DNA of 64,000 nt from NCBI GenBank assembly GCA_965215185.1, contig OZ244034.1, positions 1,728,001 to 1,792,000 of the forward strand, read 5' to 3'. The notes under the pieces were generated by a model. It worked only from the letters and a program-made list of their open reading frames with translations. It searched no databases and was not told the DNA's origin. Positions 19,903 to 54,425 of the stretch are shown here, one piece after another; the stretch's first letter is position 1; every line of letters begins with the position of its first letter. This stretch comes from Acidimicrobiia bacterium (GTDB lineage: Bacteria > Actinomycetota > Acidimicrobiia > Spongiisociales > ZC4RG35). Made by a program: the position numbers and the translations under genes.

Positions 19903-20820
19903 TCACCCACCGTTTCGGTAGGCCTCCATGAAGTCTTCCATGGCAGCCAGATGCTGATCCACGGTGAAGTCATATCCGATCGTTCCCAGGAAAGCATGGG
20001 TCACCCCGGCCTTGTCCCACTCCCGGGAGCGGTGGGCGTACTCGGCGGGGTCCCAAGGGACCAGACCCGTGAATCCCACCTCCCCTACCAGCATCCCCAC
20101 TCCGATCTCAGAAGGATCCCTGCCTTTCTGGCGGGCGGCTTCCTCCACCACCTTCAACCGGTTGCGAAGACCCACAGGGTTTCCGGTGCGGTCGGGAAGA
20201 TGAGCGGTTACCGGAGAACCAGCCGAAGCAAGCCAGCCGTCTGCCAACCAGCCGATCCGTCTCAGCACCGGATCGGCCCACCCTCCGATCCAGAGGGGGA
20301 TACGCCGGTTGGGACGGTGGTTGATCCCCGCCGCCACCACCTGATCGAACTCGCCCTCAAAGGTGACCAACTCTTCTTCCCACAATCTGCGCAGCAGCAT
20401 GACCTGCTCTTCGAACCGCCGGCCCCGGGTGCCGAAATCCTGGCCCAGAGCCTGGTATTCGACCTGGTTCCAACCCACACCAACTCCCAGGGTGAACCTC
20501 TCCCCGGACAACAGGTCCAAGGTGGCGGCTTGTTTGGCCACCAGGGCGGTCTGCCGCTGCGGCAGAACCAGCACTCCCAACCACAACTCGATGCGGGTGG
20601 TGATCCCCGCCATGTAACCGAACAGAACAAAAGGCTCGTGAAAAGTCGTCTCATATGTGTAGGGACCGGTGAGCACATGGCGGGAAGGGTCGGCCCCCAG
20701 CACATGCTCGTAGGTGAGGATCGAGTCGAAGCCCAACCCTTCGGCGGTCTCCGTCCAGGCCCGTACCGCCGCCGGATCCGAGCCGATCTCGGTCTGGGGG
20801 AAAACCACTCCGATGTCCAT
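19903..20820 (-). CDS. LLM-class F420-dependent oxidoreductase
   Basis: GVVFPQTEIG, YEHVLG, FHEPFVLFGY, LPQRQTALVAKQAA, GWNQVEY. Confidence 0.9.
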   Translation of the reverse strand: MDIGVVFPQTEIGSDPAAVRAWTETAEGLGFDSILTYEHVLGADPSRHVLTGPYTYETTFHEPFVLFGYMAGITTRIELWLGVLVLPQRQTALVAKQAATLDLLSGERFTLGVGVGWNQVEYQALGQDFGTRGRRFEEQVMLLRRLWEEELVTFEGEFDQVVAAGINHRPNRRIPLWIGGWADPVLRRIGWLADGWLASAGSPVTAHLPDRTGNPVGLRNRLKVVEEAARQKGRDPSEIGVGMLVGEVGFTGLVPWDPAEYAHRSREWDKAGVTHAFLGTIGYDFTVDQHLAAMEDFMEAYRNGG

Positions 20821-20830
20821 GGAGGTTCTC

Positions 20831-22381
20831 CTACGCCTGCTCGGCGGCGTACATGTCCCTGAGTTCACCCTTGAGAATCTTCCCGGACGGGTTGCGAGGA
20901 ATCACGTCAATAGTCCCCACCGAGGTCGGGCACTTGTAATGGGCGATGCGGCTGCGGCAGAACTCGATGATCTCGGCCTCGGTGGGCGCCTCGTCGCCGG
21001 CCGCCACAATCACCGCCCGGGGAGTCTCACCCCACTTGGCGCTGGGTACGCCGATCACCGCCACATCAGACACTCCCGGGTGCTCCATCAGCACATTCTC
21101 CACCTCGGCTGGGTAGATGTTCTCCCCACCAGAGATGATCATGTCCTTGATTCGGTCTCGGATGTACAGGAATCCGTCAGCGTCCAGCGATCCGGCGTCG
21201 CCGGTGCGCATCCACCCCTCGGCGTTGATGGTCTCGGCGGTGGCTCGCGGGTTCTTCCAATAGCCGCTCATCAGCTGAGGGGAGCGCAGCCAGATCTCGC
21301 CCACCTCGTCCGCGGCCAGATCCTCGGTGCTGACCGGGTCCACGATCCGAAGGTCCACGTTGGCGTGCGGTCGGCCCACCGACAAAAGCCGGTAGGCGTA
21401 AGGGCCGCCGGGATCGTGCTCGTCGGGATGAAGCGTCGTAACCCCGTTGCAGGACTCGGTGAGCCCGTACACCCCCGCGAAATCACAGCCCAGCACGTCC
21501 ATGGACTTGCGGAGGACCTCTTCGGAGATGGGCGACCCTCCGTAGACGATGGTTCGAAGCGCCGAGAAGTCCGCTTCGGCCACTCCCGGCACCTCCAGCA
21601 TGAATTGGAGAAGCACCGGCACCAGAAAAGCGTTGGAGATCCGGTGTCGAATCACCAGGTCCATCAGCAGCGAGGGGATGTTGTCACGGGCGATGATGGA
21701 GGTGTTGCCGTTGTACAACCCCAGCGTCGACCATCCCACGCCACCGATGTGGAACATGGGAAGGTTGACCAGGTTCACCGAGTCGCCGTCGAAGCCCCAC
21801 ATGGGAGAGCAGGTCCGCTTCAACTCCATGAAGGCGTCGTTGGGAATCATCGCCCCCTTCGGGAACCCGGTGGTGCCCGAAGAGAAAAGCAGAAACACAG
21901 TGTCATCTGCTCCCGCGCCTCCGTCCGGGTCGTCGGCGGGATAGCTGTCCCGCCACTCCTCGAACGACTGGTGGCTCTCGTGGCCTCCCACCACCAGAAT
22001 CTTTTGCACGGTGGCGAGGTCGCCAGCGATCTCGTCCAGCACCGGGACATACTCCTGCCCCACTACCAGCAGCTTGATCTCGGCGTCATTGACAACCCCG
22101 GTGATCTCCCGCGGGGAGAGCCGCCAATTGATACCGGCATGCACCGCTCCCAACTTGGCGGCCCCGAACAAGAAATCGAAGAATTCCATGCAGTTTTTGT
22201 CCAGGAACCCCACATGGTCCCCGTGTCCCACCCCGGCGGCGGCCATGGCGTTGGCGGTGCGGTTGGAACGCTCATCCAATTCGACGAAGGTGACTGCCTC
22301 AGTTTCGTAGACCAGTGCGGTCTTATCGGGTTGAAGGGCGGCGTGGTGCCGGACGACCCCGGCGATGTTGTTGATGCTCAT
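20831..22381 (-). CDS. Long-chain fatty acid--CoA ligase
   Basis: SSGTTGFPKG, YGLTE, WMRTGD, SGGENIYPAEVE, RNPSGKILK. Confidence 0.93.
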   Translation of the reverse strand: MSINNIAGVVRHHAALQPDKTALVYETEAVTFVELDERSNRTANAMAAAGVGHGDHVGFLDKNCMEFFDFLFGAAKLGAVHAGINWRLSPREITGVVNDAEIKLLVVGQEYVPVLDEIAGDLATVQKILVVGGHESHQSFEEWRDSYPADDPDGGAGADDTVFLLFSSGTTGFPKGAMIPNDAFMELKRTCSPMWGFDGDSVNLVNLPMFHIGGVGWSTLGLYNGNTSIIARDNIPSLLMDLVIRHRISNAFLVPVLLQFMLEVPGVAEADFSALRTIVYGGSPISEEVLRKSMDVLGCDFAGVYGLTESCNGVTTLHPDEHDPGGPYAYRLLSVGRPHANVDLRIVDPVSTEDLAADEVGEIWLRSPQLMSGYWKNPRATAETINAEGWMRTGDAGSLDADGFLYIRDRIKDMIISGGENIYPAEVENVLMEHPGVSDVAVIGVPSAKWGETPRAVIVAAGDEAPTEAEIIEFCRSRIAHYKCPTSVGTIDVIPRNPSGKILKGELRDMYAAEQA

Positions 22382-22437: not shown

Positions 22438-23778
22438 TCACCATTCCATGGTGCCGGCCTGCTCCAATGCACGGTCGACCATTCCCACCATGGTGTCGAT
22501 GTCCGAACGTGTTGAAATCAAAGGCGGGCACAACATAATCTTGGGTTCTCCCCGGTCGTCGGCCCGAGTGTAGAGACCTGCTTCCATCATCAGAGGAGGG
22601 AGGGTCTGTTTCAGCAACACGTCGGTCTGCTCGGCAGTGAGGCGCCGTCCGGTTTCCCGATCAGCGGTCAACTCCACGGCGTAGAAGAACCCCATTCCCC
22701 GCACATCGCTCACCATGCGATGCCCAGCGGCCATCCGCTCCAACTGATTGCGAAAATGACCGGCCAGACCGCGCACGTTGCCCACCACATCCTCATCACG
22801 AAGCGCAGTCAGGTTGGCGACCGCGGTGGCGGCCACCACCGGATGGCCACCCCAGGTCGCTCCGTGATTGAAGGTGCCGATGTGCGAATCCATCAGTTCC
22901 TCGAAAACCGGCTGGCGAATCAACAGGCCGCCGATGGGAGCATATGAGGAGGTGGCTCCCTTGGCGAAGGTGAGCAGATCCGGGACCACTCCCATCACCT
23001 GCGACCCGAACCACTCCCCCAGGCGCCCGAACCCGTTGATGACCTCATCCGCGCAGAGCAGCACCCCGTATTTGTCACAGATGCGACGCAGTTCCTGCCA
23101 GTAGCCGACGGGAGGAACTATCGCGCCTCCGCCGTTCTGCACCGGCTCGGCCAGCACCATCGCCACCGTCTCGGGTCCCTCCTCCAATATGGCCTGCTCC
23201 ACGCAGGCCGCCGCCTCCACTCCGTCGGTGAACCCCAACGTGTTGGGGACTTTGCGGAATCCATAAAGCAGCGGTCCGTAGGCTTCCCGAATGCCGGGCA
23301 GGCCGGTGGCCGACAGGGCGCCCAGGGTGGTGCCGTGATAGGACAGGTTGCGGCTTATCACCTTCACCCGACGAGGCTCGTTGCGCGCCGAGTGATACTG
23401 GCGTGAGAATTTGATGGCCGACTCCACAGCCTCTGACCCGGAACTGACCAGGAACACCACGTCCAGGTCGCCAGGCGCCAGGGAGGCGATCAGATTGGAG
23501 GCTTCGATGGTGGCGGGGGTGGTCGCCGACCAGGAGGGCGTGTAGGCGAGGGTCTTCATTTGTTCCCCGGCCGCCGCGGCGATGTCCCCGCGGCCATGAC
23601 CGATCTGGACCGAGAACAACCCGGCCAGGCCGTCGATGTAGGAATTCCCGTCCTGGTCCCAGATGCGGATGCCCTCTCCTCTGACCCAAATTGGTGCTCC
23701 TCCACTTCGCCACAGCTTCCCAGCGGTGAAATGCAAAGCGGTGTGGGCCAGGGAGTTGGTGGTGAGCGTGGTGGTCAT
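22438..23778 (-). CDS. tpa: Class III PLP aminotransferase, probable taurine--pyruvate aminotransferase
   Basis: SGSEAVE, SYHGTT, DEVINGFGR, TFAKG; directly downstream of xsc (specificity inferred from context). Confidence 0.75.
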   Translation of the reverse strand: MTTTLTTNSLAHTALHFTAGKLWRSGGAPIWVRGEGIRIWDQDGNSYIDGLAGLFSVQIGHGRGDIAAAAGEQMKTLAYTPSWSATTPATIEASNLIASLAPGDLDVVFLVSSGSEAVESAIKFSRQYHSARNEPRRVKVISRNLSYHGTTLGALSATGLPGIREAYGPLLYGFRKVPNTLGFTDGVEAAACVEQAILEEGPETVAMVLAEPVQNGGGAIVPPVGYWQELRRICDKYGVLLCADEVINGFGRLGEWFGSQVMGVVPDLLTFAKGATSSYAPIGGLLIRQPVFEELMDSHIGTFNHGATWGGHPVVAATAVANLTALRDEDVVGNVRGLAGHFRNQLERMAAGHRMVSDVRGMGFFYAVELTADRETGRRLTAEQTDVLLKQTLPPLMMEAGLYTRADDRGEPKIMLCPPLISTRSDIDTMVGMVDRALEQAGTMEW

Positions 23779-23796: not shown

Positions 23797-25530
23797 CTAT
23801 TGATTAGCGGCCAGATGCCGATAGCGGTCTAGGTGCCTCACCGGCTGTTGCAGGGCGTCGCGGCGGAAAGGCTCGGCCAATTCTTCGGGGTCAACCATCA
23901 CCTCCACCACGGTGGCCACTTCCGGATCAAGCGATTCCCCGAAAGCGTCCTTCAGGTCGGCGGGATCGGTAACCCTGATCCCCCGTCCTCCCATGGCGGT
24001 GGCGATTTCCGCAAAATTGAACCCTCCCAACTGGTGTCCGATGTTGGTACCCACGAAACGGTCGTCGTAGAAGTCGATCTGGTTGCGCTTCTCCGCTCCC
24101 CACTGCTGGTTATTGAAAACCACCGCCGTCACCGGCAGGTCCTCCTCCACGGCGGTCATCACCTCACTGAGGCTCATCCCCCACGCTCCGTCGCCGACGA
24201 TGGCGAACACCGGAGACTTGGGCGAAGCCAGCTTGGCGCCCAGCGCCCCCGGATAGGCGAAACCGCAGTTGCCAAAACCCATGGCGGCCATAAACCGCCG
24301 GGGCTTGGTGAACCGCAGATAACCATTGGAGACCGAACAGATATTTCCTATGTCGGTGGTGACAAAGGTGTCATCGGTGAGCGTCGCCGCCAACTCGCTC
24401 AGAGCCCGTCGCGGGCTAATAAGAGTGGCGTCGGAAGCCGAGCGGGAGGACAGCTCCTTGTCCCAACTGGCTTTGGTTGCCGCAATGTGGTCCATCCGCG
24501 CCTGATCCACCGGCCGGTCACCCACACTGGCCGCCAGCCGGGCCGAAATAGCCTCGGCCGCTTGGCGGGCGTCGGCGATGATCCCCAACTCGATGGGCTT
24601 GGAACGGCCCAGTTGCTCGGGGTCTATGTCGATCTGCACCACCTTGGCCGATCGTGGATAGAAATCCAGGCCGTACTGGGGAACCGTTCCGAACACGTTG
24701 ATCCGGCAGCCCAACATCAAAACCACATCGGCTTCCGACAAAAGCTCCATAGCCGCCCTCGAACCCATGTAGCCCAACGGTCCCACCGAGAGGGGATGGG
24801 TATAGGGGAAGGCGTCGTTGTGCAGGTAGGAGGCGGCCACGGGGGCGCCGAGTTGCTCGGCCAGCCGGGCGGTCTGCTGGTAGGCGTCAGACAGCACCAC
24901 CCCATATCCGGCCACGATCACCGGGCGGCGAGCCTCGGCCAGCAGGGCCGCGGCCTTGTCCAGCAGGGCGGGGTCGCCGGCTCCGCGCTCGCCGGAACGG
25001 TACTGGTTGGGTTCCAGAATCTCCTCATGGGATTCCCCGTAGAAGAAATCGCGGGGAATGTCAACCTGCACCGGCCCCAGATGGGCCATGGCCATCCGGA
25101 AGGCGGTCCTCATCGATTCGGCCATCCGATCAGGACGGGGAACCTGCAATTGAAATTTGGTGATAGAACGGAAAATGGAGAGTTGTTCCACCTCTTGGAA
25201 CCCGTCCAGTCCAACCGATCCCGAAGTCGCCGAGGGAGTGATGATCACCATCGGAGAGTGGGCGTGATAGGCAGCGGCGATCCCGGTGACCATATTGGTG
25301 ATCCCCGGACCGTTTTGGGCGGTGCAGACCGAGGGGCGGCCGGTGGCCCGAGCGTAGGTGTCGGCCATATGAGCGGCGTTCTGCTCATGGCGGACCGGTA
25401 AAAACCGGATGCCCGCCGCCGGGAAGAGATCAAGGGCGTCCATAAAGGCCGATCCCACGATTCCGGGAACAGTGGTTACTCCCTCCACTCTGAGGGTCTC
25501 AACCAAGGCCTCGCTGGGGGTCATCACCAT
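23797..25530 (-). CDS. xsc: Sulfoacetaldehyde acetyltransferase
   Basis: Xsc signatures MTPSEA..GIVGSAFMD..DLFP.AGIRF, GDGAWGMS, WGAEKRNQ.DFY..RFVG, EPFRRDA. Confidence 0.93.
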   Translation of the reverse strand: MVMTPSEALVETLRVEGVTTVPGIVGSAFMDALDLFPAAGIRFLPVRHEQNAAHMADTYARATGRPSVCTAQNGPGITNMVTGIAAAYHAHSPMVIITPSATSGSVGLDGFQEVEQLSIFRSITKFQLQVPRPDRMAESMRTAFRMAMAHLGPVQVDIPRDFFYGESHEEILEPNQYRSGERGAGDPALLDKAAALLAEARRPVIVAGYGVVLSDAYQQTARLAEQLGAPVAASYLHNDAFPYTHPLSVGPLGYMGSRAAMELLSEADVVLMLGCRINVFGTVPQYGLDFYPRSAKVVQIDIDPEQLGRSKPIELGIIADARQAAEAISARLAASVGDRPVDQARMDHIAATKASWDKELSSRSASDATLISPRRALSELAATLTDDTFVTTDIGNICSVSNGYLRFTKPRRFMAAMGFGNCGFAYPGALGAKLASPKSPVFAIVGDGAWGMSLSEVMTAVEEDLPVTAVVFNNQQWGAEKRNQIDFYDDRFVGTNIGHQLGGFNFAEIATAMGGRGIRVTDPADLKDAFGESLDPEVATVVEVMVDPEELAEPFRRDALQQPVRHLDRYRHLAANQ

Positions 25531-25771: not shown

Positions 25772-26785
25772 TTATGTCTGCAGTATGCGCCGGGAGAGGT
25801 CCCGGGCCCCGTCCATGTCGGAGACAAACCGGTCGGCGGGGACTCTCGACAGCACATCGAGTACTTGAAGACTCTCGGCCACCGGACCCTCAAGGCCCAA
25901 CACGATGCACTCGGTGTCCTCGGCTATTGCAACATCGATCAACTGCCCAACGACCAGGGCCGCGCTGTCATCCATGGTAATCGGCGCCGGAAAAGTCGAG
26001 GATCACCACCTCATGATCCCGAATATCCACGCTGAGCGTGCCAACCATCTTGTTGGAAGAAGCCACCGTGAAGGTCCCCTGGAAGGCCACCAATCCCACC
26101 CGCGCCGAGAAAGGATCCATATCCTGGCTGATTGTCCTGTCCATCAGGAAACTGTGGTCCAGCAGTGGCACGGAAATTATATTGTCCAACTCCAGATGCT
26201 CCAGTTGCAACGCACTCACCATTCCGGCCACCACCAGACCCACCACCGCCGTCACCAGATCGAGGAAGACCGTAAGCCCCAGAGTGGTCGCCATCACCAC
26301 CAGGTTCTCCCGTTTGATGTAGCGGATGCGGGTAAGAAAACGCCAGTCGATGATGTCCCAGCCGACCTTCATCAGAATGCCGGCAAGAGCCGCCAGAGGG
26401 ACCTGCTCGACAAACCCCCCGAGACCCAAGACCAGACCAAAGAGGATTGCTGCGCTTGTCATCCCCGACAATCTGCTCAATCCGCCGGCCCGGGCATTTA
26501 CCACTGTCCCGAGCGTGTTGCCGGCGCCGGGAACTCCTCCCACCAAACCGGCGAGCATGTTGCCCACGCCCTGGCCCATCAATTCCTGGTTGGGTTATGT
26601 TGGTTACGGGTGATCGAATCGGCTATCAGAGCGGTAAGCAAGGTATCGATGGCGCCCAGTAGGGCGAGGGTCAGAGCCGGCTGCACCGCGCCAGCCAGAA
26701 GGTCGCGGTGGGTTGGGATGATTGGGTGTTGATGGTGGTGGGGGGGAGGCTAGACCGGCCGGGCAGGTCACCTGCGGGGTGGGTT
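25772..26785 (-). pseudogene. SulP anion transporter paralog, C-terminal part with STAS domain, frameshifted and missing its N-terminal part
   Basis: QPALTLALLGAIDTLL..IADSIT / ELMGQGVGN...VVILDFS / MDDSAALVV in three frames, each matching the intact SulP; left boundary firm, right boundary approximate. Confidence 0.88.
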
Positions 26786-26899
26786 AGGTGGGGTGGATGG
26801 CCCGGAGAAAGGATTGGGAACCAGACATCAGGTATTTAGCGACGGCAATTACCCCCAACCGCAAAGCGTTACCAGGCATCGTTATTGTCCACGGCGGTG

Positions 26900-26987
26900 T
26901 GACCTTTTCTGCTCGATGTGGGATCATGCAACAGGATGCACTGACCTTTTCTGCTCGACCCGCGCCGTGGGATCATGCAACAGGATG
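26900..26987 (+). repeat. Imperfect tandem duplication (2 copies of about 39-46 bp)
   Basis: TGACCTTTTCTGCTCGA at 26900 and 26942; GTGGGATCATGCAACAGGATG at 26918 and 26967. Confidence 0.9.
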
Positions 26988-27054
26988 GTCTGCCGAGACA
27001 CCCGAAGCCCGGCATTAACCCAAGGTGTGGCTACAACTTGGGAGAAAGTACACC

Positions 27055-27463
27055 CTAGGCGGAAGAATCCCGGCCAGTGAGGGCGCGGGCCGCCTCGACG
27101 ATCGACGCCAGCGAGCTTCCGGGCGGGAACACCCCGACGTTGCGTTCCGTCAGCCGAGATATGGCCTGAGGCGGCACGGTCCCACCCACGAACACAGGAA
27201 TGTCCCCCACTCCGGCCGTTTCCATCTCGTCGAGGGTCCTCTCCACCACCTCCACCCGGCCACCGACGTTGATTCCCACCAGGTCGACGTCTTCGGCGGC
27301 CGCCACGCTGGCGATCTCGCTGGGTCGTAGCATCCCACCCAGGATCACTTCGAATCCAGCTTCCCGAAGCGCCCGTGCCACCACCGCCACTCCCCGCCAG
27401 TGACCGTCCAAGCTGCATCTTGGCCATCAGCACCCGAGCGGGCGGTGGGAGATGATCAGACAT
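27055..27463 (-). CDS. Cobalamin-binding small subunit of an acyl-CoA mutase, with an apparent 1-nt frameshift near codon 16
   Basis: MSDHLPPPARVLMAK in one frame, (S)LDGHWRG...EDVDLVG...VFVGG in the next; DxHxxG motif. Confidence 0.85.
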
Positions 27464-29093
27464 TGATCGGCGCCTGCCAGTGCCAGTCCCCGAAAGTCCC
27501 CCTCAGCACATCCCCGATCTCACCGATGGAGGCATCGGAGCTCACCGCCTCCATGAAAGCGGGAATGGAGTTCACCGAATCGTTGCGGCACACCGCTTCC
27601 AAGTTGCGAAGCGCCTTCATGGCCCCCTCCCGATGACGGGTGCGACGAAGGTCGGAGAGACGCTCCATGGCCATCTCCCAGGTCTGGGCGCCCGAGCGCC
27701 CCTCGAAGGCCTTCACCTCCATGATGGGATCATCGATGGTGTGGGTGTTCACCCCCACTATCGCTCGATCCCCCGTCTCAATTCCCGCCACGATGCGCTG
27801 ATTGTTCTCCTCGGCGCACTCCAAGAGAAATCCGTCGTCGAGCACCGCCAAGAATCCTCCCCGGGATTGGATCTGCTCGAAGAACTTCCAGCCTCGCTCC
27901 TCCAGTTCACCGGTGAGAGACTCGATGTAGTAGCTCCCGCCCAGCGGGTCGGCCACCTCCCGAAGGCTGATCTCGTTTTGGAGGATCTGCTGGATGCGAA
28001 TAGACATCAGGTGGGCGTGGTCGGAGGGGATGGACATCGCCTCGTCGTAGCCGGACACTCCCAGGGACTGGGTGCCTCCCAACACCGACGCCAGCGCCAT
28101 CAGCGTTCCCCGCACGATGTTGTTGAAAGGCTCCTGGTAGGTCATGGCGCTGCCGGCGGTCACCACGTGGATTCTCATCTGCCGAGCTTTCTCATCGGTG
28201 ATCCCATAGCGCTCCGCCAGCATGTCCGACCACATCTTGCGGGCCGCTCGCAATTTGGCGGCATCTTCGAATATCTCCATGGACACCCGGAAATTGACCC
28301 CTCCGATGCGATGCGCCAAGCGTTCCACATCCACCCTGCCGCGCGCCGCGATCATGTCAAGGTACTGGGCGGCGTTGGCCATCACCGCCCCCAATTCCTG
28401 GAACGCCGAGAGGCCGCTGTCCGCCGCGTTGTAACCGGCGATGGAGACGGGCACCCACCGAGGCATCCGCTCCGAGCACCACTCGATCAGATCCAGGTTG
28501 AAGCGGATCGCCGCCTCGGGGGGGATCTGCTCCTTGGTGGGACACCCCAGGTAGGTAAGAAAGAAGTCGCTCTGTCCCGTCCCGGCCAGCTTCTCGAGCG
28601 GAATTCCCCGCCGAACGGCCACCGACCAGTAGCAGGGCAGCGTGTAGACCGCTGATTGGGCTACTCCACCTCCCGGCTTGGCGTAGATCGATTCAAGGGG
28701 GAGATCCGCGAGAATGGTCTCATAGTCCCGCAAGCCCACCGTGACCGTCCCGGTCAGGCCCACATCCTCCCGCCTCTCCACGATCTCGGGGTGATCGACA
28801 TCGTATAGGTGGTCGTCGGTCATCCGGTCGTGCTTGATAATGATCCCGGTTTCGCCCGCCTCGAACAGGAGAAACTTGAGCCGCTTGTTCATGTCCTCGG
28901 GATTGCCGTACCCCGAGAGTTGGAAGATCCGCCAGGGCCTGTCCCGGTACATACGGGGATAGGCGCCGCGCAGATAGGGCGCCTTACCGGGTGGCGCGGC
29001 CAGGGCCTCTCTGATTCCGGCCGGGACATCCTCCGGCCCATACACCAGCTTGAGTGGTATTCCAGAGGTGGTCTCGGGTTGGTTTTCGATCAT
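27456..29093 (-). CDS. B12-dependent acyl-CoA mutase large subunit (methylmalonyl-CoA mutase family, atypical specificity)
   Basis: PYLRGAYPRMYRDRPW, AAKLRAAR, QEPFNNIVR, GGTQSL...DEA, DPLGGSYYIESLT. Confidence 0.9.
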   Translation of the reverse strand: MIENQPETTSGIPLKLVYGPEDVPAGIREALAAPPGKAPYLRGAYPRMYRDRPWRIFQLSGYGNPEDMNKRLKFLLFEAGETGIIIKHDRMTDDHLYDVDHPEIVERREDVGLTGTVTVGLRDYETILADLPLESIYAKPGGGVAQSAVYTLPCYWSVAVRRGIPLEKLAGTGQSDFFLTYLGCPTKEQIPPEAAIRFNLDLIEWCSERMPRWVPVSIAGYNAADSGLSAFQELGAVMANAAQYLDMIAARGRVDVERLAHRIGGVNFRVSMEIFEDAAKLRAARKMWSDMLAERYGITDEKARQMRIHVVTAGSAMTYQEPFNNIVRGTLMALASVLGGTQSLGVSGYDEAMSIPSDHAHLMSIRIQQILQNEISLREVADPLGGSYYIESLTGELEERGWKFFEQIQSRGGFLAVLDDGFLLECAEENNQRIVAGIETGDRAIVGVNTHTIDDPIMEVKAFEGRSGAQTWEMAMERLSDLRRTRHREGAMKALRNLEAVCRNDSVNSIPAFMEAVSSDASIGEIGDVLRGTFGDWHWQAPINV

Positions 29094-29159
29094 TGAGTTG
29101 GGGGTGTTGTGATAGTCCTAGTCTGTCGACAACTTTACCGGTCCTTTGCCTCTCCCCTC

Positions 29160-29300
29160 ACGAAACAACACTTCCACGGCCGGGGTATCGAGTTCCCAGG
29201 CGACCCTGTTCGACCAACCGGAGGACCATCGCTGCGGTGACCGGCTTGTTGATCGAGGCGATCCAGCACACCGCATCGAGCGTCATCGACTCCTCTTCCT
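29160..29300 (-). pseudogene. Remnant of a serine hydrolase (beta-lactamase class C/EstB-like)
   Basis: Manual translation MTLDAVCWIASINKPVTAAMVLRLVEQGRL[shift]ELDTPAVEVL with SxxK motif; rest of gene absent. Confidence 0.7.
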
Positions 29301-29358
29301 CCACAGAGCACAACACGTCTGGGCTGCGGCACACATAGACAATGTCCGGGTCCGGAGC

Positions 29359-29829
29359 CTACCCTTCACTCTCCTCTGCGTCGTCGTCAGCAAAGACCTT
29401 TCCAGTGAAATAATCCTGCATCACCTCTAGGTTGATCTCGGTGTTCCCGGGTGCTCCTGGAGGAAGACCATCGCGAGCCTCGATCCAGGGGCGCTCTCGA
29501 CAGGTGACCATCGTTAATTGCGAGAGGGTCCAATCACCAAACATTGTCAGGACGGCCTCCACCGATTCCTTCTCCTCAGGAATAAGCCGACCAGGGTCCC
29601 CATCCTCAGGCCAAGGGCTCTCCAAAAGGAACTGACCCAGATGTTGGTTCATTATCGGTCTCACCACCGGACCGCTCGCCCAAGCTTCGATCGGCTCTTC
29701 GAATAGCGGCACGCCATCCCACGCCAGGTGAAATCCCTGGCAGAAATAGAGAAGCCTATGCAGCTTCAGGGTAAACGTGTTGCCCAGCTTCTCCACCAAG
29801 AGGGCGGCTACATCGCGGGCGCTGACCAT
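29359..29829 (-). CDS. Panacea (DUF4065/SocA-like) antitoxin domain protein
   Basis: SARDVA..L, KLHRLLYFCQG.HL, PLFEEPIEAWASGPVV, ERPWIEAR; RBS GGAG upstream of MVSAR. Confidence 0.85.
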   Translation of the reverse strand: MVSARDVAALLVEKLGNTFTLKLHRLLYFCQGFHLAWDGVPLFEEPIEAWASGPVVRPIMNQHLGQFLLESPWPEDGDPGRLIPEEKESVEAVLTMFGDWTLSQLTMVTCRERPWIEARDGLPPGAPGNTEINLEVMQDYFTGKVFADDDAEESEG

Positions 29830-29959
29830 TTGTCTCCTTTCTTCAGTACTTGAGAACATAATGGGAGGGTGTGACAAAACCGGCAGTAGGCCAGGCAGCG
29901 GAGAGAGGCCGGACAACTAGAGTGGTGAGCGCCCATAGTCGTACAAGAAAGCTCCGCCA

Positions 29960-30361
29960 ATGGTCGTTATCCGCACTGCCCGAGGGGGCGGGCGTTTCGA
30001 AGAGGTGGGTTCTTATGTGCGGGCGCGCCGGGTGGGACCCTTCGTGTTCGTGGCCGGCACCACCGCCGTGGAACCAAGCGGCAAGCTGCATGCCCCCGGC
30101 GACGCCTACGCCCAGACCCATTACATCCTGGACCGCATCGAAAAGGCTCTCATGCAGGTGGGCGCATCCCTCTCTGATGTGGTCAGAACACGAGCTTTTT
30201 TCTCCGAAAGCGCCGCCGCCGGAGGTTTCATCAGGGCCCACGGTGAACGCTTCCGGGGAATCGAGCCGGTGTTGACTGGCGTGGAGGCCGGTTTGACAGT
30301 AGAGGGCATGATGGTCGAGATCGAGGTAGATGCCTTGCTGATCGACGAATTGGCCCACTGA
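29960..30361 (+). CDS. RidA/YjgF family protein
   Basis: YVRARRVG..VFVAGTT, GASLSDVVRTR, VEIEVDA. Confidence 0.88.
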   Translation: MVVIRTARGGGRFEEVGSYVRARRVGPFVFVAGTTAVEPSGKLHAPGDAYAQTHYILDRIEKALMQVGASLSDVVRTRAFFSESAAAGGFIRAHGERFRGIEPVLTGVEAGLTVEGMMVEIEVDALLIDELAH

Positions 30362-30487
30362 GAAACAGTCGGCGGGTTTTCCCAAGGGGAAGCGGGATGA
30401 CGTTGTATAGTGTTTCACGACAACTCATTTAAGGCGGGCCCGGGTGGTTCGCCCCTGACGTAATAACTACGGTAAGGAGGACCTCAA

Positions 30488-31963
30488 TTGACCTCTAGTA
30501 CTGATCAGGGCCTTATCAAGGCGCTTTCTACCCGGGATGTCTTTATGGCCGGGGTCGGGCTGGTGGTCGCCAGTTCCACCCTGGTATCGGACTTCGAAGG
30601 GTGGATCGGCATAGGCACCGCCTTTGCCATGGCCTTGTTGATGGGCTTTGTCATCAACTTGCTCCTAGGACTTTCCGCCGCCGAACTGGCGGTGACCTAC
30701 CCGAGAGCAGGCGCGCTCTACGACTATGGCGCGGCCGCTTTCGGGGGTAAGGGCGCCAAAGCGTCCGTAACGGGAATCTTCCTGGGATTTTCCTTCTACG
30801 CCATGTTCGCGCTGGTCGGAGCGTTGGAAACCAACGCCGGCGCCTTCGGACTGCGGGCCCTATTCAACACCAACGACGCCGAAATCTTGGATACCAGCAC
30901 TGCTGACGTGCTTCTGCCTTGGATTATCGGCATGACCATCCTGGCGGTTATCCCCAACCTGCTGGGAATTCAGATCCTGGCCCGGGTCGAGTTCCTGGTG
31001 GTAATAGTGATGCTGTCCATCCGCTGGATCTTCGGATTGTTCGGATACTTCGGCGCCGGCAACACCGGTGGCTGGAGCGCCGGCAACTGGGACGCCGGTC
31101 TCAGCATGTGGGACTGGTTCGGCTCTGAAGGGGTAATCGCCGCCGGGCTGATCATCGCCATCTGGTCGTTCATTGGCATCGAGTTCGTCGGTCCACTAGC
31201 CGAGGAGACCAAGGATCCGGCTCGCATGATCCCCAAGGGGATCGTATGGGGCTTGGTCGCCATCTTGGCCACCTCGCTGTTCATGGGCTTCGGCGTGCTG
31301 GGCACCGCCTCGACCTCCACCTGGCAAGCTGGTTTGGACGCTTCCGGCTGCGGCGGAAACTGCACCCAGTTGTTCGTGGGACGCGAGTTCTGGGGTGAGG
31401 GTGGCCGTTATCTGATGGCCGCGGCCAGTGTTCTGGCAACCTTTGCCTCGATGACCATCGTCTATGCCGGGATGCCCCGGATTCTTTACGGGATATCCCG
31501 CAACGGTCATCTCTTCGGACCCCTCTCCCGCATCTTCTCCAGGCTTCATCCCCGCTACCGCACCCCTTGGTGGGCAATAATCATCACCGCCATCCTCTAC
31601 GTGATTGTCGGCGCCACCGCCGGAACGGTGGTGGAGTTGATCTTCACCGGCGCATACCTGTGGCTGCTGCTCTATGTGGCCTTCCACATCGTGGTGATAG
31701 TCGGCCGGGTGATGGATCCGGATGTGGACCGTCCTTACAAACTGCCGCTGATCATCCCGATCATCGGCGCCCTGATCACCCTATACGGGATCTCCGTAGC
31801 CTTCGGTGGGGCCCACTGGGGTGAAGGAGGTTTCTTGATCGACACCGCTTCCAACCTGAAACTTGGGCCGGTTCTCTGGGTCTTCGTAGGCTCGTTGATC
31901 GCCGCCCCCATTTCCTACGCAATGCGTAAGTCCTCAGGGATGGAAAGCCGGTACAGCTCCTAG
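30488..31963 (+). CDS. APC family amino acid/amine permease
   Basis: About 12 TM segments, AELAVTYPRAG, FIGIEFVGPLAEE.KDP, LHPRYRTP, RPYKLP; RBS AAGGAGG. Confidence 0.9.
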   Translation: MTSSTDQGLIKALSTRDVFMAGVGLVVASSTLVSDFEGWIGIGTAFAMALLMGFVINLLLGLSAAELAVTYPRAGALYDYGAAAFGGKGAKASVTGIFLGFSFYAMFALVGALETNAGAFGLRALFNTNDAEILDTSTADVLLPWIIGMTILAVIPNLLGIQILARVEFLVVIVMLSIRWIFGLFGYFGAGNTGGWSAGNWDAGLSMWDWFGSEGVIAAGLIIAIWSFIGIEFVGPLAEETKDPARMIPKGIVWGLVAILATSLFMGFGVLGTASTSTWQAGLDASGCGGNCTQLFVGREFWGEGGRYLMAAASVLATFASMTIVYAGMPRILYGISRNGHLFGPLSRIFSRLHPRYRTPWWAIIITAILYVIVGATAGTVVELIFTGAYLWLLLYVAFHIVVIVGRVMDPDVDRPYKLPLIIPIIGALITLYGISVAFGGAHWGEGGFLIDTASNLKLGPVLWVFVGSLIAAPISYAMRKSSGMESRYSS

Positions 31964-31982
31964 CCAAAACTCGAAAATAACC

Positions 31983-32023
31983 AGTAAAGAAGCCCGCGGG
32001 CCATGCCCGTGGGCTTCTTTACT
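31983..32023 (+). terminator. Intrinsic terminator or processing hairpin
   Basis: AGTAAAGAAGCCCGCGGGC-CAT-GCCCGTGGGCTTCTTTACT, 19-bp stem with one G-U pair. Confidence 0.8.
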
Positions 32024-32050
32024 ATCGGTGCAGGTAGCCTTGGATAACTA

Positions 32051-32644
32051 ATGGATCTTGAGCACACTTCAGGTTCGCCGTGGGCCAACCTCAATATCCG
32101 CACCCGCGTTTCAGGACTCTATGAAACCCGACGCCGGCGCATTCTCGAAGAGCCCCGGGCCGCCTTGGAGAAGTTAAACATCATCTACCAGGTCACCCCG
32201 GGTCACCGCCAGGTGAAAGCCTTATTGGACGATGATGTGCAGCTGGCAGTGGGCTTCACCGGCAGGGTCCGCATCTTCGGAGCTCTCCTGGACACCATCT
32301 GGGTCACCCTGAAAGGAGAACCGGGCGACAAACCCGAGCGCATCTCCTATAACTTCAAACACAACCGCTTCACCACCCGCTCTTCGAAGCCCTACGTCCA
32401 AGCAGTGGCGGAGCGGGCCACCGGGGACTCCCGGGTCCGAAAGCTAATCCCCAACGGAGAACTCAAACAGGTTCAACTCTTGGTGGGACCGGGAGGGCAA
32501 AGGGCGGAGATCATTCCGATGCCGGGGACCATCACCGCTATTTTCCTTCCTCCCATGCCCCCCTACTCGGTGCCCATGCGTCAAGAAGAGGCAGACGCCC
32601 AGTTGCACCTCCTGCTTCGCCTCACCGAGATTTACGATGGGTAA
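32051..32644 (+). CDS. Hypothetical protein (possibly DUF3156-like APC-associated protein)
   Basis: Coding-like 197-aa ORF between APC and glxB; family call rests on size, position and recalled context only. Confidence 0.6.
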   Translation: MDLEHTSGSPWANLNIRTRVSGLYETRRRRILEEPRAALEKLNIIYQVTPGHRQVKALLDDDVQLAVGFTGRVRIFGALLDTIWVTLKGEPGDKPERISYNFKHNRFTTRSSKPYVQAVAERATGDSRVRKLIPNGELKQVQLLVGPGGQRAEIIPMPGTITAIFLPPMPPYSVPMRQEEADAQLHLLLRLTEIYDG

Positions 32645-32710
32645 ACTCCAGTCGAACAGTTCCCTTCACCGGACATATCCCAACCTCCTACTACCAAAGG
32701 AGCCCGAACG

Positions 32711-33658
32711 ATGTGCGGGATAGCAGGAAGAATTCTCCGCGAACCTGGCCCGGTAGGCGCTGATCTGGTGGCCATGATGCAAGCCATGGCCCACCGGGGA
32801 AGCGATTCCACCGGTTTCGCCCTTTATGGCGACCCAATGCCGGCTGGGTTTGTGGTTCGGGTGGTGAGCGTGAACCGGCGCCGATTGAATCAGGACCTGG
32901 ATACGTTCCTCTCGATCTTGAGGGACCACGGATCGGATTTCCTCTCTAGCCCAACGTGGGACGGGTTGAAGCAGCCGCATGTCTCGGTGCGGATGACCAT
33001 CGCCGAACCCGTCTCGGAGTTGACCGAGTGGCTGGATGAGGCAGACGCCATTCCCGGCTTCGAAATCCAGTCGGTGGGACGGAGCCTGGAGATCATCAAA
33101 GATGTCGGCAACGCCGAAGAAGTGATGGAAAAGCACGACTTGGGGAGTTACATCGGCACCCACGGCATTGCCAATGCCCGCATGGCCACCGAATCCAAGG
33201 TGTACCCCACCGCCTCCCACCCTTTCTGGGCCAGGCCCTTTCCGGACATCGCCATCGTCCACAACGGCCAGCTCACCAACTATTGGCTAACCCGGGGGCG
33301 GCTCATCCGGGCCGGTTACCGATTCTTCACCGACAACGACTCCGAGATGATCGCGGTGTGGATCTCCGACCAGATGAACCGGGGCCTCACCCTGGAGGAG
33401 GCCCTCCAGCTGTCACTCACCGAAATGGACGGCGTTTTCACCTATCTGGCCGCCACCCCCTATCAGATGGGCATGGCCAAGGACAAATGGGCGATCAAGC
33501 CCCTGGCCGTGATCCGGGAAAACGGCAACATGGCCACCGCCACCGAAGAGCAGGCGGTGCGCAAGGTATATCGTCAACACCACCCCGTCATCAACTATGA
33601 CGGACCCGCCGAATACACCACCTGGGTATGCCGGCCGGTACCAGCCGTCGCTGCATGA
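32711..33658 (+). CDS. glxB: Class II glutamine amidotransferase, N-methylglutamate synthase subunit A-like
   Basis: MCGIAG N-terminal nucleophile, RMATES, HPF, VHNGQLTN, NDSE. Confidence 0.85.
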   Translation: MCGIAGRILREPGPVGADLVAMMQAMAHRGSDSTGFALYGDPMPAGFVVRVVSVNRRRLNQDLDTFLSILRDHGSDFLSSPTWDGLKQPHVSVRMTIAEPVSELTEWLDEADAIPGFEIQSVGRSLEIIKDVGNAEEVMEKHDLGSYIGTHGIANARMATESKVYPTASHPFWARPFPDIAIVHNGQLTNYWLTRGRLIRAGYRFFTDNDSEMIAVWISDQMNRGLTLEEALQLSLTEMDGVFTYLAATPYQMGMAKDKWAIKPLAVIRENGNMATATEEQAVRKVYRQHHPVINYDGPAEYTTWVCRPVPAVAA

Positions 33659-34347
33659 GTGTCGTCACCGTCGAAGTGGGAGACCGTCCCCTTCGGGATG
33701 TCAACCGCGATATTCGCTCCCTGGCGTCCACGGCCTCGGAGATCGTGGTCACCGATCCTCTCTCCCGACACAACCTGGCGGTGGCGTTGACCGAAGACAC
33801 CCCGGTTCGCATCCTCGGCAACGTCGGCTACTACTGCGGTGGGCTCAACAGCGGTGGCGTGATCCACGTGGAAGGAGACTGTGGGTGGGGCGTGGGAGAG
33901 GCCATGGCCCGGGGGAAGATCACCATCGACGGCTATGCCGGGATGAGCGTGGGCGCTTCCATGCGGGGAGGGCTGATCCACATCAAAGGAAATACCGGTC
34001 CGCGGTGCGGGGTGGCCCAGAAGGGCGGAGATATCGTGGTGGAGGGAAGCATCGGTTATCTGAGCGGGTTCATGGCGCACACCGGTCGGATCATCACCCT
34101 GGGTAACGCCGGAGACGCCACCGGAGACTCCCTGTGGGAGGGCGCTGTCTGGGTAGCAGGCGACATCAAGTCGCTGGGGGTGGACAGCCACGCGGTGGAG
34201 CCGCCGCCCGAAGAGGTGGCGGACGTAGAAGAGCTCCTGGCCGGACTGGGTTTGGGAGACTCCACACGCGATTGGAAGAAAGTGGTGTCGGGACAACGAC
34301 TCTGGTATTTCGAAAGTAGGGACGCCACCGCATGGCTGATGATTTGA
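33655..34347 (+). CDS. glxC: GXGXG-domain protein, N-methylglutamate synthase subunit B-like
   Basis: HNLAVAL, GNVGYYCGG, GPRCGVAQKGGDIVVEGSIGYLSGFMA; ATGA coupling with glxB. Confidence 0.88.
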   Translation: MSVVTVEVGDRPLRDVNRDIRSLASTASEIVVTDPLSRHNLAVALTEDTPVRILGNVGYYCGGLNSGGVIHVEGDCGWGVGEAMARGKITIDGYAGMSVGASMRGGLIHIKGNTGPRCGVAQKGGDIVVEGSIGYLSGFMAHTGRIITLGNAGDATGDSLWEGAVWVAGDIKSLGVDSHAVEPPPEEVADVEELLAGLGLGDSTRDWKKVVSGQRLWYFESRDATAWLMI

Positions 34348-35747
34348 GCATTACCAACTCTCCCAACGGGCTCTCCCACGAGGACCTGGTCGCTCTCCGG
34401 GACGGCGCCATCGACGGGCGCCCGGCGGGCATCCCCTCCTCCTACGACCACGGCGACAGCATCCGCTGGACCCCCAAGGACATCGCCGACATCCACGCCA
34501 TGTCGAGGCTGGGCCGCTACCAAATTCGGGGCTTTACGACCGCCAACCCGAGAATGGCCAACTGGAACGACCTGGTGTTCGTCCCCGCCACCGCCACCCG
34601 GCTTCCCTTGGAGGGATATCGGGAAAGTTGTGAGACCAAGACGGTGCTGGGCGATCGTCCCGGCCTGGTCTCCAAGCCCATAGAACTGGACATTCCCATC
34701 TACGTCGCTTCCATGTCCTTTGGTGCGCTGTCGGCGTCCGCCAAGACCGCCTTGGGAAGGGGGGCCTCCAAGGTGGGCACCATGACCTGCAGCGGAGAGG
34801 GAGGAATGCTCCCGGAGGAGAGGGAAGCCTCCAAGACCATGGTCTACCAGATGACCCCGTCCCGCTACGGGCTGGACCTCGAGCACCTCCGTCAGGCCGA
34901 CGGCATCGAGATCGTAATCGGCCAGGGCGCCAAGCCCGGGACCGGGGGTTTGCTGCTGGGTATGAAGATCTCCGACCGGGTGGCGCGGATGCGTTCACTC
35001 CCGGTTGGGGTCGATCAGCGCTCTACCGTGCGCCATCCTGACTTCCTGGGCGCCGACGACCTGCAGATCAAGATCGAGGAACTTCGGGAAGCCACTGGAT
35101 ACCGGATTCCCATTTTCGTGAAGCTGGGCGCAACCCGCCCCCGTTTCGACGTGGCCATGGCCGCCAAGGTGGCTGACGTGATCGTCCTGGACGGAGCGGA
35201 GGGTGGCACCGGCGCCTCTCCCGAACTGCTGCTGGACCACACCGGCATCCCCACCATGGCAGCCATTCCAGCCGCCCGCGAAGCTTTGGAAGAAAGCGGC
35301 ATGTCCGAAGAGGTGAAACTGGTGGCGGCGGGAGGCATCCGCAACGGCACCGATGCGGCCAAGGCGCTGGCGCTGGGCGCCGATGCGGTGATGATCGGAA
35401 CCGCCGCCCTGATGGCGCTGGGATGCAACTCGCCCCGGTATCTGGAGGACTACCAGAAGATCGGAACCTCTCCCGGAAAGTGTCACCACTGCCACACCGG
35501 CCGTTGCCCGGTGGGGATCACCACCCAGGACCCGGAGTTGGAGACCCGCCTGCACGTGGACGCCGCCGCCGACCGGGTGGCCCGCTATCTGACCGCCATG
35601 ACCATGGAAATCACCATGTTGGCCAAGGCGTGCGGCAAGTCAAGCGTTCACAACCTGGAGATGGAGGACCTTCGGGCCCTGTCCCTTAACTCGTCGGCTC
35701 TTACCGGCGTAAAACTGGCCGGAGTGGACCGGCCCTTCACCTGGTAG
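34332..35747 (+). CDS. glxD: FMN-binding glutamate synthase family, N-methylglutamate synthase subunit C-like
   Basis: MSFGALS, GQGAKPG.GG.LLG.K, RHPD, CHHCHTGRCPVGITTQD. Confidence 0.88.
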   Translation: MADDLSITNSPNGLSHEDLVALRDGAIDGRPAGIPSSYDHGDSIRWTPKDIADIHAMSRLGRYQIRGFTTANPRMANWNDLVFVPATATRLPLEGYRESCETKTVLGDRPGLVSKPIELDIPIYVASMSFGALSASAKTALGRGASKVGTMTCSGEGGMLPEEREASKTMVYQMTPSRYGLDLEHLRQADGIEIVIGQGAKPGTGGLLLGMKISDRVARMRSLPVGVDQRSTVRHPDFLGADDLQIKIEELREATGYRIPIFVKLGATRPRFDVAMAAKVADVIVLDGAEGGTGASPELLLDHTGIPTMAAIPAAREALEESGMSEEVKLVAAGGIRNGTDAAKALALGADAVMIGTAALMALGCNSPRYLEDYQKIGTSPGKCHHCHTGRCPVGITTQDPELETRLHVDAAADRVARYLTAMTMEITMLAKACGKSSVHNLEMEDLRALSLNSSALTGVKLAGVDRPFTW

Positions 35748-35782
35748 CAGTTCTCCCAAGCAATACCAGGAGGGAGGCATGC

Positions 35783-36598
35783 ATGGATAAGGTTGCAGAC
35801 GGTTGCGACTCCTGGCGGGGCTCGGAGTATCGGGAGAACACCGCTCACCACCGCGCCTTCGACCCGCCGGCCCTGTGGAACCTCGACCTGGACGTAGGCG
35901 ACTCTCTGTTGGATGTGGGATGCGGCGCCGGGGATTTGACCGTGGCCTTGGCCGAGCATTATCCCCGGGCTCAGATGATTGGCATAGACGCCTCTCCCAG
36001 CCAGATCGAACAAGCCCGCCGGCACGGCCATCCGGGCATCCGCTTCGAAAAGCGGCGGGTCCAGGATCTTCAATGGCAAGAGCGCTTCTCGGCGGTGGTT
36101 TCCATCGCCTGCCTGCACTGGATTCCGATCAAGGAACACCCTCTGGTGCTGGAAAGGCTCCACCGTGCCCTGGCACCGGGAGGAAAACTGATCGCCAGTT
36201 TTGCCTCTGAGACCAATATCGCGCAGATCCGAAGAATCATCTTTTCGGTGGCCGTACAGTCTCCCTTCCACGAATACGTCCTAGGTCGTCTGCCACATCA
36301 TCCCTGGCCGTCGCTGGACCGCTACACCGAGATAGTTGCCGCCTCCCCCTTTGGCGGCGCCGAAGAACTGCGTATCGAGACCCAACCTCGTCCCTTCTCT
36401 CACAAACGTCTCATCGGCTGGCTCCGGACTCAGACCCTCACCGGCTACCGACCCCTCCTGCCACCCCACGTCTTCGAAGCGCTGGTGTCCACAGTGGGAG
36501 AGCAGATAGCGGACCTGACCAGGACGGGACCCGACAGCCATGTCGTACCCTTCGTGCGACTGCAACTGCAAGCCCGCCGACCGAGAACCTCTGCATGA
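35783..36598 (+). CDS. Class I SAM-dependent methyltransferase (Tam-like)
   Basis: LLDVGCGAG, GIDAS, ACLHWI, LAPGG. Confidence 0.85.
   Translation: MDKVADGCDSWRGSEYRENTAHHRAFDPPALWNLDLDVGDSLLDVGCGAGDLTVALAEHYPRAQMIGIDASPSQIEQARRHGHPGIRFEKRRVQDLQWQERFSAVVSIACLHWIPIKEHPLVLERLHRALAPGGKLIASFASETNIAQIRRIIFSVAVQSPFHEYVLGRLPHHPWPSLDRYTEIVAASPFGGAEELRIETQPRPFSHKRLIGWLRTQTLTGYRPLLPPHVFEALVSTVGEQIADLTRTGPDSHVVPFVRLQLQARRPRTSA

Positions 36599-54348: not shown

Positions 54349-54425
<77 letters not shown>

Follow-up and report, generated by a model that had tools for sequence, protein, structure and literature searches.

A B12-dependent acyl-coenzyme A (acyl-CoA) mutase encoded by an Acidimicrobiia bacterium probably represents an active enzyme of a distinct and widespread clade with a new acyl-CoA substrate. 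Its genes, for a large subunit that forms the substrate barrel and a small B12-binding subunit, lie on the minus strand of a stretch of 64,000 nucleotides (assembly GCA_965215185.1, contig OZ244034.1, positions 1,728,001 to 1,792,000), which we call the window. The parts of this reading differ in firmness. Judged from its sequence, the protein is very probably an active adenosylcobalamin (AdoCbl)-dependent acyl-CoA mutase; its substrate rather likely differs from those of the known classes; and an apolar, non-carboxylated substrate is proposed tentatively, with somewhat less than even confidence. To our knowledge, B12 acyl-CoA mutases of about five natural substrate classes have been characterised; those considered here are methylmalonyl-CoA mutase (MCM), ethylmalonyl-CoA mutase (ECM), isobutyryl-CoA mutase (ICM, or IcmF), 2-hydroxyisobutyryl-CoA mutase (HCM) and pivalyl-CoA mutase (PCM).

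The large subunit is an MCM-family barrel protein, as a preceding sequence-only reading had proposed. In the Pfam search, its residues 7-535 cover positions 1-512 of the 512 positions of PF01642 (expect value, E, 1e-133), and the NCBIfam model TIGR00641 is matched with 384 bits, above its 304-bit cut-off. Searched against solved structures, the sequence is closest to the HCM large subunit (4r3u_A, E 4.7e-87), followed by human, mycobacterial and Propionibacterium shermanii MCM (296 bits for HCM, 247 for MCM). An AlphaFold2 model computed from an input of 24 clade members reached a mean predicted local distance difference test score (pLDDT) of 80 and a predicted template-modelling (TM) score of 0.86; it superposes on HCM 4r3u_A with a TM-score of 0.86, on MCM alpha chains with 0.81-0.84 and on the non-catalytic MutA chains with 0.56-0.60. 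Membership in the AdoCbl acyl-CoA mutase superfamily is thus indicated by a full-length barrel match, a partner with the DxHxxG motif and nine adenosyl- or CoA-contact residues. Matches in the ESM Atlas were limited to generic 'methylmalonyl-CoA mutase' clusters.

The pocket of this barrel, however, is rewritten relative to MCM. Residues were mapped manually onto P. shermanii MCM (PDB 5req_A) through the HMMER alignment, where the literature number equals the chain index plus one; the numbering was checked on the Phe of the Y89F mutant, which falls at index 88 of 5req_A. Kept are Y75 (Y45 in the window protein), R82 (R52), T195 (T172), Q197 (Q174), Y243 (Y221), R283 (R262), R326 (R307), H328 (H309), Q361 (Q342) and E370 (E351), among them those that we take to be contacts to the cofactor and CoA. 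Changed are T85 to R55, R87 to F57, Y89 to L59, S114 to I85, A116 to K87, F117 to H88, R207 to C184, H244 to N222, S285 to G264, Q330 to V311, H364 to G345, T365 to V346 and N366 to S347, as well as S164 to K139 and T166 to G141 within a rewritten S164-T166 loop that carries an insertion of two residues. Y89, R207 and H244 are presumably the carboxylate and thioester readers of MCM, and H244 is taken to be its catalytic acid. All substitutions and kept contacts that the sequence-only reading had listed were confirmed by this mapping, and its motifs (PWRIFQLSGY, GIIIKHD, YLGCPT, AGYN, IHVVT and LGVSG) were found letter for letter. T85, the S164-T166 loop and S285 come in addition, while the changes at A116 and F117 were implicit in GIIIKHD. 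The Arg gained at R55 lies on the strand of the lost R87, two residues further up.

Since the acyl-reading pocket residues of MCM, ICM, HCM and PCM are all replaced, the substrate most likely lies outside the five known ones. The loss of Y89/R207, H244 and Q330/H364/N366, with Phe, Leu, Val, Cys and Gly coming in, suggests an acyl group that is larger and less polar. Our best guess from the pocket would be a neutral, branched and larger acyl-CoA.

The distinctness of the clade was evident in both database searches and phylogeny. Among 1.84 billion representatives clustered at 50% identity the clade corresponds to a single representative (70% identity, 854 bits); the next ones fall to 45% (527 bits), 41% and 38%, and those that follow to 40% or less. 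A quick FastTree phylogeny with Shimodaira-Hasegawa-like supports and midpoint root was computed on 138 rows, namely the nearest full-length 50%-identity representatives (those of <480 or >760 residues were dropped) and references from the own genome, Methylibium PM1, strain ELW1 and Xanthobacter. The clade has a local support of 100% in this tree. A split with a support of 99 places it, along with two sister representatives and two additional rows, apart from the 123 rows to which the PCM-type, HCM, IcmF and MCM references belong. Over 18 pocket positions the clade reads RFLI[KE]HQFTCYNHVGVSE, as against TRYSAFQLERYHHQHTNE in MCM, TRISDFQLEQYHHQHTNE in HCM, PRFSAFQLEQYHHQHTNE in IcmF and TRLSLPNIHNQHHQHTDE in Xaut_5043, the Xanthobacter reference. 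Signatures, tree and identities thus agree with the earlier claim that the active site matches no known class, as far as MCM, ICM/IcmF, HCM and PCM are concerned, and the tree, used to see whether the clade nests in a characterised one, sets it apart from all four. The statement that H244 is widely conserved was too strong: His stands there in 57 of the 138 rows and Asn in 31, while E370 is present in 135 of them.

No in-clade member was found among 72,556 plasmids, where the 430 matching records all had less than 60% identity (35% for the best). Literature searches, which did not reach the key papers on specificity, returned neither a characterisation of the clade nor a paper on a native PCM sequence, and the clade is called uncharacterised on this basis. 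Moreover, the 18-position table holds dozens of other unnamed mutase clades with rewritten pockets, and the clade appears, on sequence grounds, to be one among many unexplored branches of the family and no unique oddity. Most of the nearest 50%-identity representatives (P0126-P0274) have signatures unlike those of MCM, ICM, HCM and PCM. Clades P0130 and P0139 also pair Cys at 207 with Asn at 244, but keep R87, Q330 and H364.

The rewritten pocket is conserved. When 5.8 billion proteins were searched, 1361 matches were returned; the 120 best of them (59-92% identity) were aligned with the query. Among these 121 sequences C184, N222 and G345 are invariant (121/121 each), R55 and F57 are found in 120 with one gap each, and H88 in 115; position 59 is Leu in 115 and Ile in five, position 311 is Val in 96 and Leu in 25, and position 87 is split between Lys (43) and Glu (78). 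The ratio of non-synonymous to synonymous substitution rates (dN/dS, Nei-Gojobori) between the window gene and 13 relatives with 89-92% protein identity was 0.057-0.067, with a median of 0.062 and a maximum of 0.090 across all 91 pairs. The large subunit is under purifying selection and is not decaying. The sequence-only reading had named substitutions unique to this genome and a dN/dS near 1 as signs of decay; instead, the pocket is widely kept and dN/dS is about 0.06, and decay of the mutase gene was rejected on both grounds, 120 homologues sharing the pocket; the second in-clade copy of the genome, whose small subunit is intact, agrees with this.

The small subunit is encoded right behind the large one and is split over two frames in the window. 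Its frame 27055-27426 matches TIGR00640 (E 4e-24, 85 bits against a cut-off of 57), its N-terminus MSDHLPPPARVLMAK lies in the other frame, and the frame changes after ...VLMAK. All eight close relatives, aligned by eye, read VLVAKSSLDGHWRG without the extra base at 27417. Logan contigs were taken from four sequencing runs, each belonging to a different study, and compared over 26600-29200 as contigs and not as raw reads; one of the runs may be the source sample, and in each of the four the covering contig leaves this base out. The frameshift was therefore rejected as a feature of the population: the extra base most likely reflects an error of consensus or assembly, or else a rare variant, and in the population the small subunit is most likely intact. 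Thus the 'repaired small subunit' of which the earlier reading had spoken is correct for the window, where the frameshift is present, but no repair is needed in nature. Likewise, the duplication at 27475 near the end of the large-subunit gene is left out, with its six letters, in the contigs of all four runs and is lacking in 13 of 13 relatives, which end in DWQ.P.... Across 67 in-clade small subunits DxHxxG, in the form DGHWRG, and GG are kept at no less than 90%.

Relatives were collected with clade-specific peptide patterns and tblastn on contigs from one genome per species, which gave 221 confirmed relatives. The best 80 of these all have at least 57% identity and belong to the Acidimicrobiia, Nitriliruptorales, Propionibacteriales, Chloroflexota, Alphaproteobacteria and Gammaproteobacteria. 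Many of the Acidimicrobiia carriers come, by record title, from sponge or coral metagenomes, and cultured gammaproteobacterial carriers are Pseudohaliea rubra DSM 19751 and Haliea alexandrii. Neighbours within 5 kb of the mutase were counted with phmmer at 66 loci, the identities of representatives being taken from Pfam: the B12 small subunit was found at 65, an acyl-CoA ligase at 48, a short-chain dehydrogenase/reductase (SDR) at 35, an enoyl-CoA hydratase at 32, MeaB at 30, an Fe-alcohol dehydrogenase at 28, an acyl-CoA dehydrogenase at 16, a luciferase-like monooxygenase at 7 and a thiolase at 6.

Loci were also typed by position 87, which was possible for 71 of 82, the remainder being truncated or outside the pattern. 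The K-type comprises 28 loci including the window, all Acidimicrobiia-like, and the E-type, found in Proteobacteria and Chloroflexi, 43 loci plus a paralogue in the same genome as the window. A ligase lies within 5 kb at 59 of the 71 typed loci (K-type 27/28, E-type 32/43). SDR (8/28 and 26/43) and enoyl-CoA hydratase (4/28 and 24/43) occur with both types, and a TonB receptor is found at 22 of the 43 E-type and none of the 28 K-type loci. MeaB accompanies 27 of the 43 E-type enzymes, as expected of a working AdoCbl enzyme. The earlier statement that no MeaB lies nearby is true of the window locus and does not extend to these relatives, and the genome does hold a stand-alone MeaB, 1 Mb from the window mutase. 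No match to the PduO-type adenosyltransferase family PF01923 was found in this 95%-complete genome, which is not evidence of absent B12 handling.

The 3.12-Mb genome contains four mutase-family genes: a canonical split MCM (L001) with Y/R/H/Q intact, an IcmF (L004), the window gene and a second in-clade copy (L003). This second copy is of the E-type (G000:C1:2369310-2370881; L003, L044). Its small subunit is intact, it is flanked by a CoA ligase on the downstream side and an EamA transporter on the upstream side, and hydantoinase A/B genes as well as a luciferase-like monooxygenase are found near it.

Taken together, we propose that the large subunit would pair with the small B12-binding subunit encoded behind it, which would hold the cofactor His-on through DxHxxG. 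An acyl-CoA provided by the co-located AMP-forming ligase would bind in the barrel; the 5'-deoxyadenosyl radical would take a hydrogen from it, the thioester carbon would shift to the adjacent carbon (a 1,2 shift), and the isomer would pass into beta-oxidation-type steps. Several observations weigh against this reading. The position of H244 is Asn, and near the cofactor Q330, H364 and N366 have given way to other residues, so that the chemistry could differ from that of a classical mutase. The pocket has acquired R55, Lys or Glu at 87 and H88, which weakens the guess of an apolar substrate; the invariance of R55 and H88 and the Lys/Glu split at 87 make a relocated polar or anionic site possible. 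The non-carboxylated, bulky substrate suggested by the earlier reading is accordingly plausible and unproven, with the loss of Y89, R207, H244 and Q330 in its favour and these entering residues against it. In the small subunit the usual SxL is replaced by LNV with a deletion of two residues, and Trp stands in place of Asp after the His, so that the cofactor module, too, appears to carry clade-specific changes. None of the 28 K-type loci, including the window, has MeaB, TetR or Fe-alcohol dehydrogenase within 5 kb (TetR and Fe-alcohol dehydrogenase each accompany 25 of the 43 E-type loci). None of 21 neighbour proteins reached an NCBIfam equivalog cut-off, and the pathway therefore stays generic. 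The pLDDT of the model falls below 50 at 343-360, the strand with G345, V346, S347 and E351, and no activity, expression or ligand-bound structure was found for any clade member. No RNA data were found for the window stretch, which speaks neither for nor against expression.

A different account would be that the clade carries out a known neutral rearrangement (isobutyryl/n-butyryl, pivalyl/isovaleryl, 2-hydroxyisobutyryl/3-hydroxybutyryl, possibly longer homologues) through a differently built pocket, that is, by convergence. Indeed, its nearest solved relative is HCM in both bit score and TM-score; the layout of large subunit, small subunit, ligase and MeaB is that of the HCM clusters of Methylibium PM1 and strain ELW1 and of the Xaut_5043 cluster; Leu at 89 is common to the clade and Xaut_5043; and the SDR near the mutase at 34 of the 71 typed loci would suit a 3-hydroxyacyl-CoA product. 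Nevertheless we regard convergence as unlikely. The clade shows neither the I/D/Q signature of HCM nor the F/Q signature of ICM and shares L89 alone with Xaut_5043; its identity to these enzymes is 30-35%, against at least 57% within the clade across phyla among the relatives listed; and the IcmF already present in the same genome presumably covers the isobutyryl and pivalyl reactions. A new substrate class remains the reading that we prefer.

Another account rests on the surroundings of the mutase in the window (Table 1). The gene order on the minus strand is mutase large subunit, small subunit, SulP-type permease fragment, sulfoacetaldehyde acetyltransferase (Xsc), class-III aminotransferase, acyl-CoA ligase and luciferase-like monooxygenase, and a relative (L008) has the same order minus the permease fragment. 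The adjacent ligase likely supplies the substrate of the mutase.

Table 1. Features of the window discussed in the text, by position within the 64,000 nucleotides.
Feature	Position	Strand	Remarks
Luciferase-like flavin monooxygenase	19903-20868	-	PF00296 E 1e-43; end of gene string
AMP-forming acyl-CoA ligase	20831-22381	-	PF00501 E 4e-80; downstream of mutase, same gene string
Class-III aminotransferase (taurine:pyruvate-type candidate)	22438-23778	-	PF00202 E 5.5e-82; NF005102 553 bits, under 574 cut-off
Sulfoacetaldehyde acetyltransferase Xsc	23797-25530	-	TIGR03457 795 bits vs 676-bit cut-off; between mutase and ligase
SulP-type sulfate permease, broken 3' fragment	25968-26749	-	PF00916 E 4e-20 (25968-26582); frame change near 26582
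B12-binding small subunit	27055-27463	-	start ATG overlaps large-subunit stop; two frames in window
Extra base	27417	.	T on - strand, AAGA[T]GCAGC; frameshifts small subunit; from relatives and contigs
Acyl-CoA mutase large (substrate-barrel) subunit	27456-29093	-	545 aa; K-type (GIIIKHD)
6-base tandem duplication	27470-27481	.	CTGGCA x2 on - strand; adds 'HW' near large-subunit C-terminus
SocA/Panacea-domain antitoxin-like open reading frame	29359-29916	-	PF13274 E 5.7e-12; directly upstream of mutase
Amino-acid permease	30488-31963		
Class-II glutamine amidotransferase	32711-33658		
Glutamate-synthase-domain protein	34332-35747		
Methyltransferase	35783-36598		
tRNA gene	54352-54425	-	sole match at Rfam gathering score in window

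It could be imagined that R55, K87 and H88 bind an anion, and that the K-type enzymes of sponge Acidimicrobiia act on an anionic acyl-CoA, sulfonated or other, that has a link to Xsc and the aminotransferase. The near-invariance of R55 and H88 and the occupation of position 87 by Lys or Glu, among the best 120 of 1361 matches and the query, would fit a relocated charge, as would the position of xsc and the aminotransferase gene, a taurine-type pair for sulfonate degradation, between small subunit and ligase on one strand in 16 of 16 close relatives, which are sponge- and coral-type metagenome bins, and the broken permease fragment in the window. This adjacency, however, is confined to one close lineage (0/12 other K-type and 0/43 E-type loci, that is, 0/55 other typed loci); the Xsc scores above the equivalog cut-off that marks the ordinary taurine route, in which no mutase is required; and the E-type enzymes are acidic at position 87. 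The Xsc link to the mutase is thus lineage-specific, the sulfonate link a low-probability lead, and the account as a whole improbable. In its most far-reaching form, a long shot, the clade would represent a sixth natural substrate class, and the K-type enzyme of the sponge symbionts, with R55, K87 and H88 in its pocket, would be co-transcribed with Xsc and the aminotransferase and rearrange a sulfonated acyl-CoA or the acyl part of a taurine-linked compound, for example 3-sulfopropanoyl-CoA to 2-sulfopropanoyl-CoA; if true, radical B12 chemistry would thereby enter the catabolism of organosulfonates.

Finally, it is scarcely credible, and largely refuted, that the protein is a paralogue without catalytic function or in decay, comparable to the MutA beta chain of MCM, or that the two genes form a pseudogene pair through the frameshifted small subunit: the frameshift at 27417, the duplication at 27475, the loss of the catalytic H244 and the broken permease fragment and repeats next door would suggest it, but selection is strong, the pocket is near-invariant, neither the extra base nor the duplication occurs in the contigs or the relatives, the B12-binding partner and MeaB accompany the mutase at 65 and 30 of 66 loci, and the TM-scores to MutA are far below those to catalytic chains.

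Several further features of the locus were recorded. The permease fragment sits between the mutase small subunit and xsc, where close relatives have about 70 bases. A direct repeat of about 45 bases (...CATCCTGTTGCATGATCCCAC...GAGCAGAAAAGGTC), present twice, was noted for 26900-27000 and 26706-26806. Public-run contigs skip 99 bases at 26706-26806 (4/4 runs) and 54 bases at 26943-26998 (2/4 runs), and the assembly differs from the population at both places. On the other side of the mutase, about 6.7 kb (29094-35782) with the SocA-like reading frame, the amino-acid permease, the amidotransferase and the glutamate-synthase-domain protein separate it from the methyltransferase gene, which abuts the mutase in relative L008; this stretch may be an inserted module. 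No cobalamin riboswitch was found at the Rfam gathering score in the whole window.

A better knowledge of this clade would be of general interest, since each newer class (ECM, HCM, PCM) has exposed a pathway and provided a means of building or breaking down branched carbon skeletons. The clade spans sponge-associated Acidimicrobiia to cultured marine Halieaceae, within a cluster of ligase, MeaB and beta-oxidation genes, and the cultured carriers P. rubra DSM 19751 and H. alexandrii make the substrate directly testable. Moreover, most of the near relatives in metagenomes have pockets unlike those of any studied mutase.

Compared with the known systems, MCM (P. shermanii 1req/5req, human 2xij) shares with the clade the Pfam family, the barrel and the nine CoA/cofactor contacts, but differs in R87F, Y89L, R207C, H244N, Q330V, H364G, N366S, S114I and F117H, at 26-28% identity in structural alignment. 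An identity as MCM was rejected, since L59, C184 and N222 replace Y89, R207 and H244 and the model NF006944 is matched with 339 bits against a cut-off of 876. ICM/IcmF acts on neutral acyl-CoA. IcmF (PDB 4xc6 and the own-genome copy) resembles the clade in its barrel fold (TM 0.74-0.78), whereas it keeps H244, Q330 and HTN, shows the F/Q signature, as expected also in the own-genome copy, and is fused with a G domain; the sequence match is limited to residues 166-530 (E 9e-30). Leu and Cys at 89/207 together with Asn, Val and GVS, and 133 bits for NF045497 against a cut-off of 1500, led us to reject this identity as well. In ECM (Ecm/MeaA) the region of 328-330 and 364-366 is altered, with room for a larger substituent, and the clade is changed in this region, too. 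ECM consists of one fused chain in which the Arg that binds the carboxylate is retained, whereas the protein of the clade is split and has Cys at 207.

A native PCM is said to have been described by Kitanishi and colleagues in 2015, and we take Xaut_5043/5044 of Xanthobacter autotrophicus Py2 to be this enzyme. Xaut_5043 shares with the clade the Leu at 89, the split subunits and a cluster with TetR, a MeaB-type GTPase and CoA ligases. It differs in keeping R87, H244, H328, Q330 and H364, in having Gln at 243 and in its 30% identity, and in the tree it joins P0145 and P0160 in a clade of its own (support 100), well away from the present one. Since L89 alone is shared, at 30% identity and in separate clades, an identity as PCM of the Xaut_5043 type was rejected.

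The closest solved match in both sequence and fold is HCM (HcmAB, 4r3u; plasmid copy of Methylibium petroleiphilum PM1, L125:5899-7587). Its signature is presumably Ile at 89/90, Asp at 116/117 and Gln at 207/208, and the two HCM references indeed show it (TRISDFQLEQ...). The clade has Leu, Lys (or Glu) and Cys instead and falls outside the HCM clade in the tree, and an identity as HCM was rejected. HCM is 31-35% identical to the clade and branches inside the 123-row group, and HcmB, like Xaut_5044, has Asp where the DGHWRG of the clade has Trp. In common with the clade, HCM is divided into a large and a small subunit, its cluster includes a CoA ligase and MeaB, and Q197, Y243, H328 and E370 are kept.

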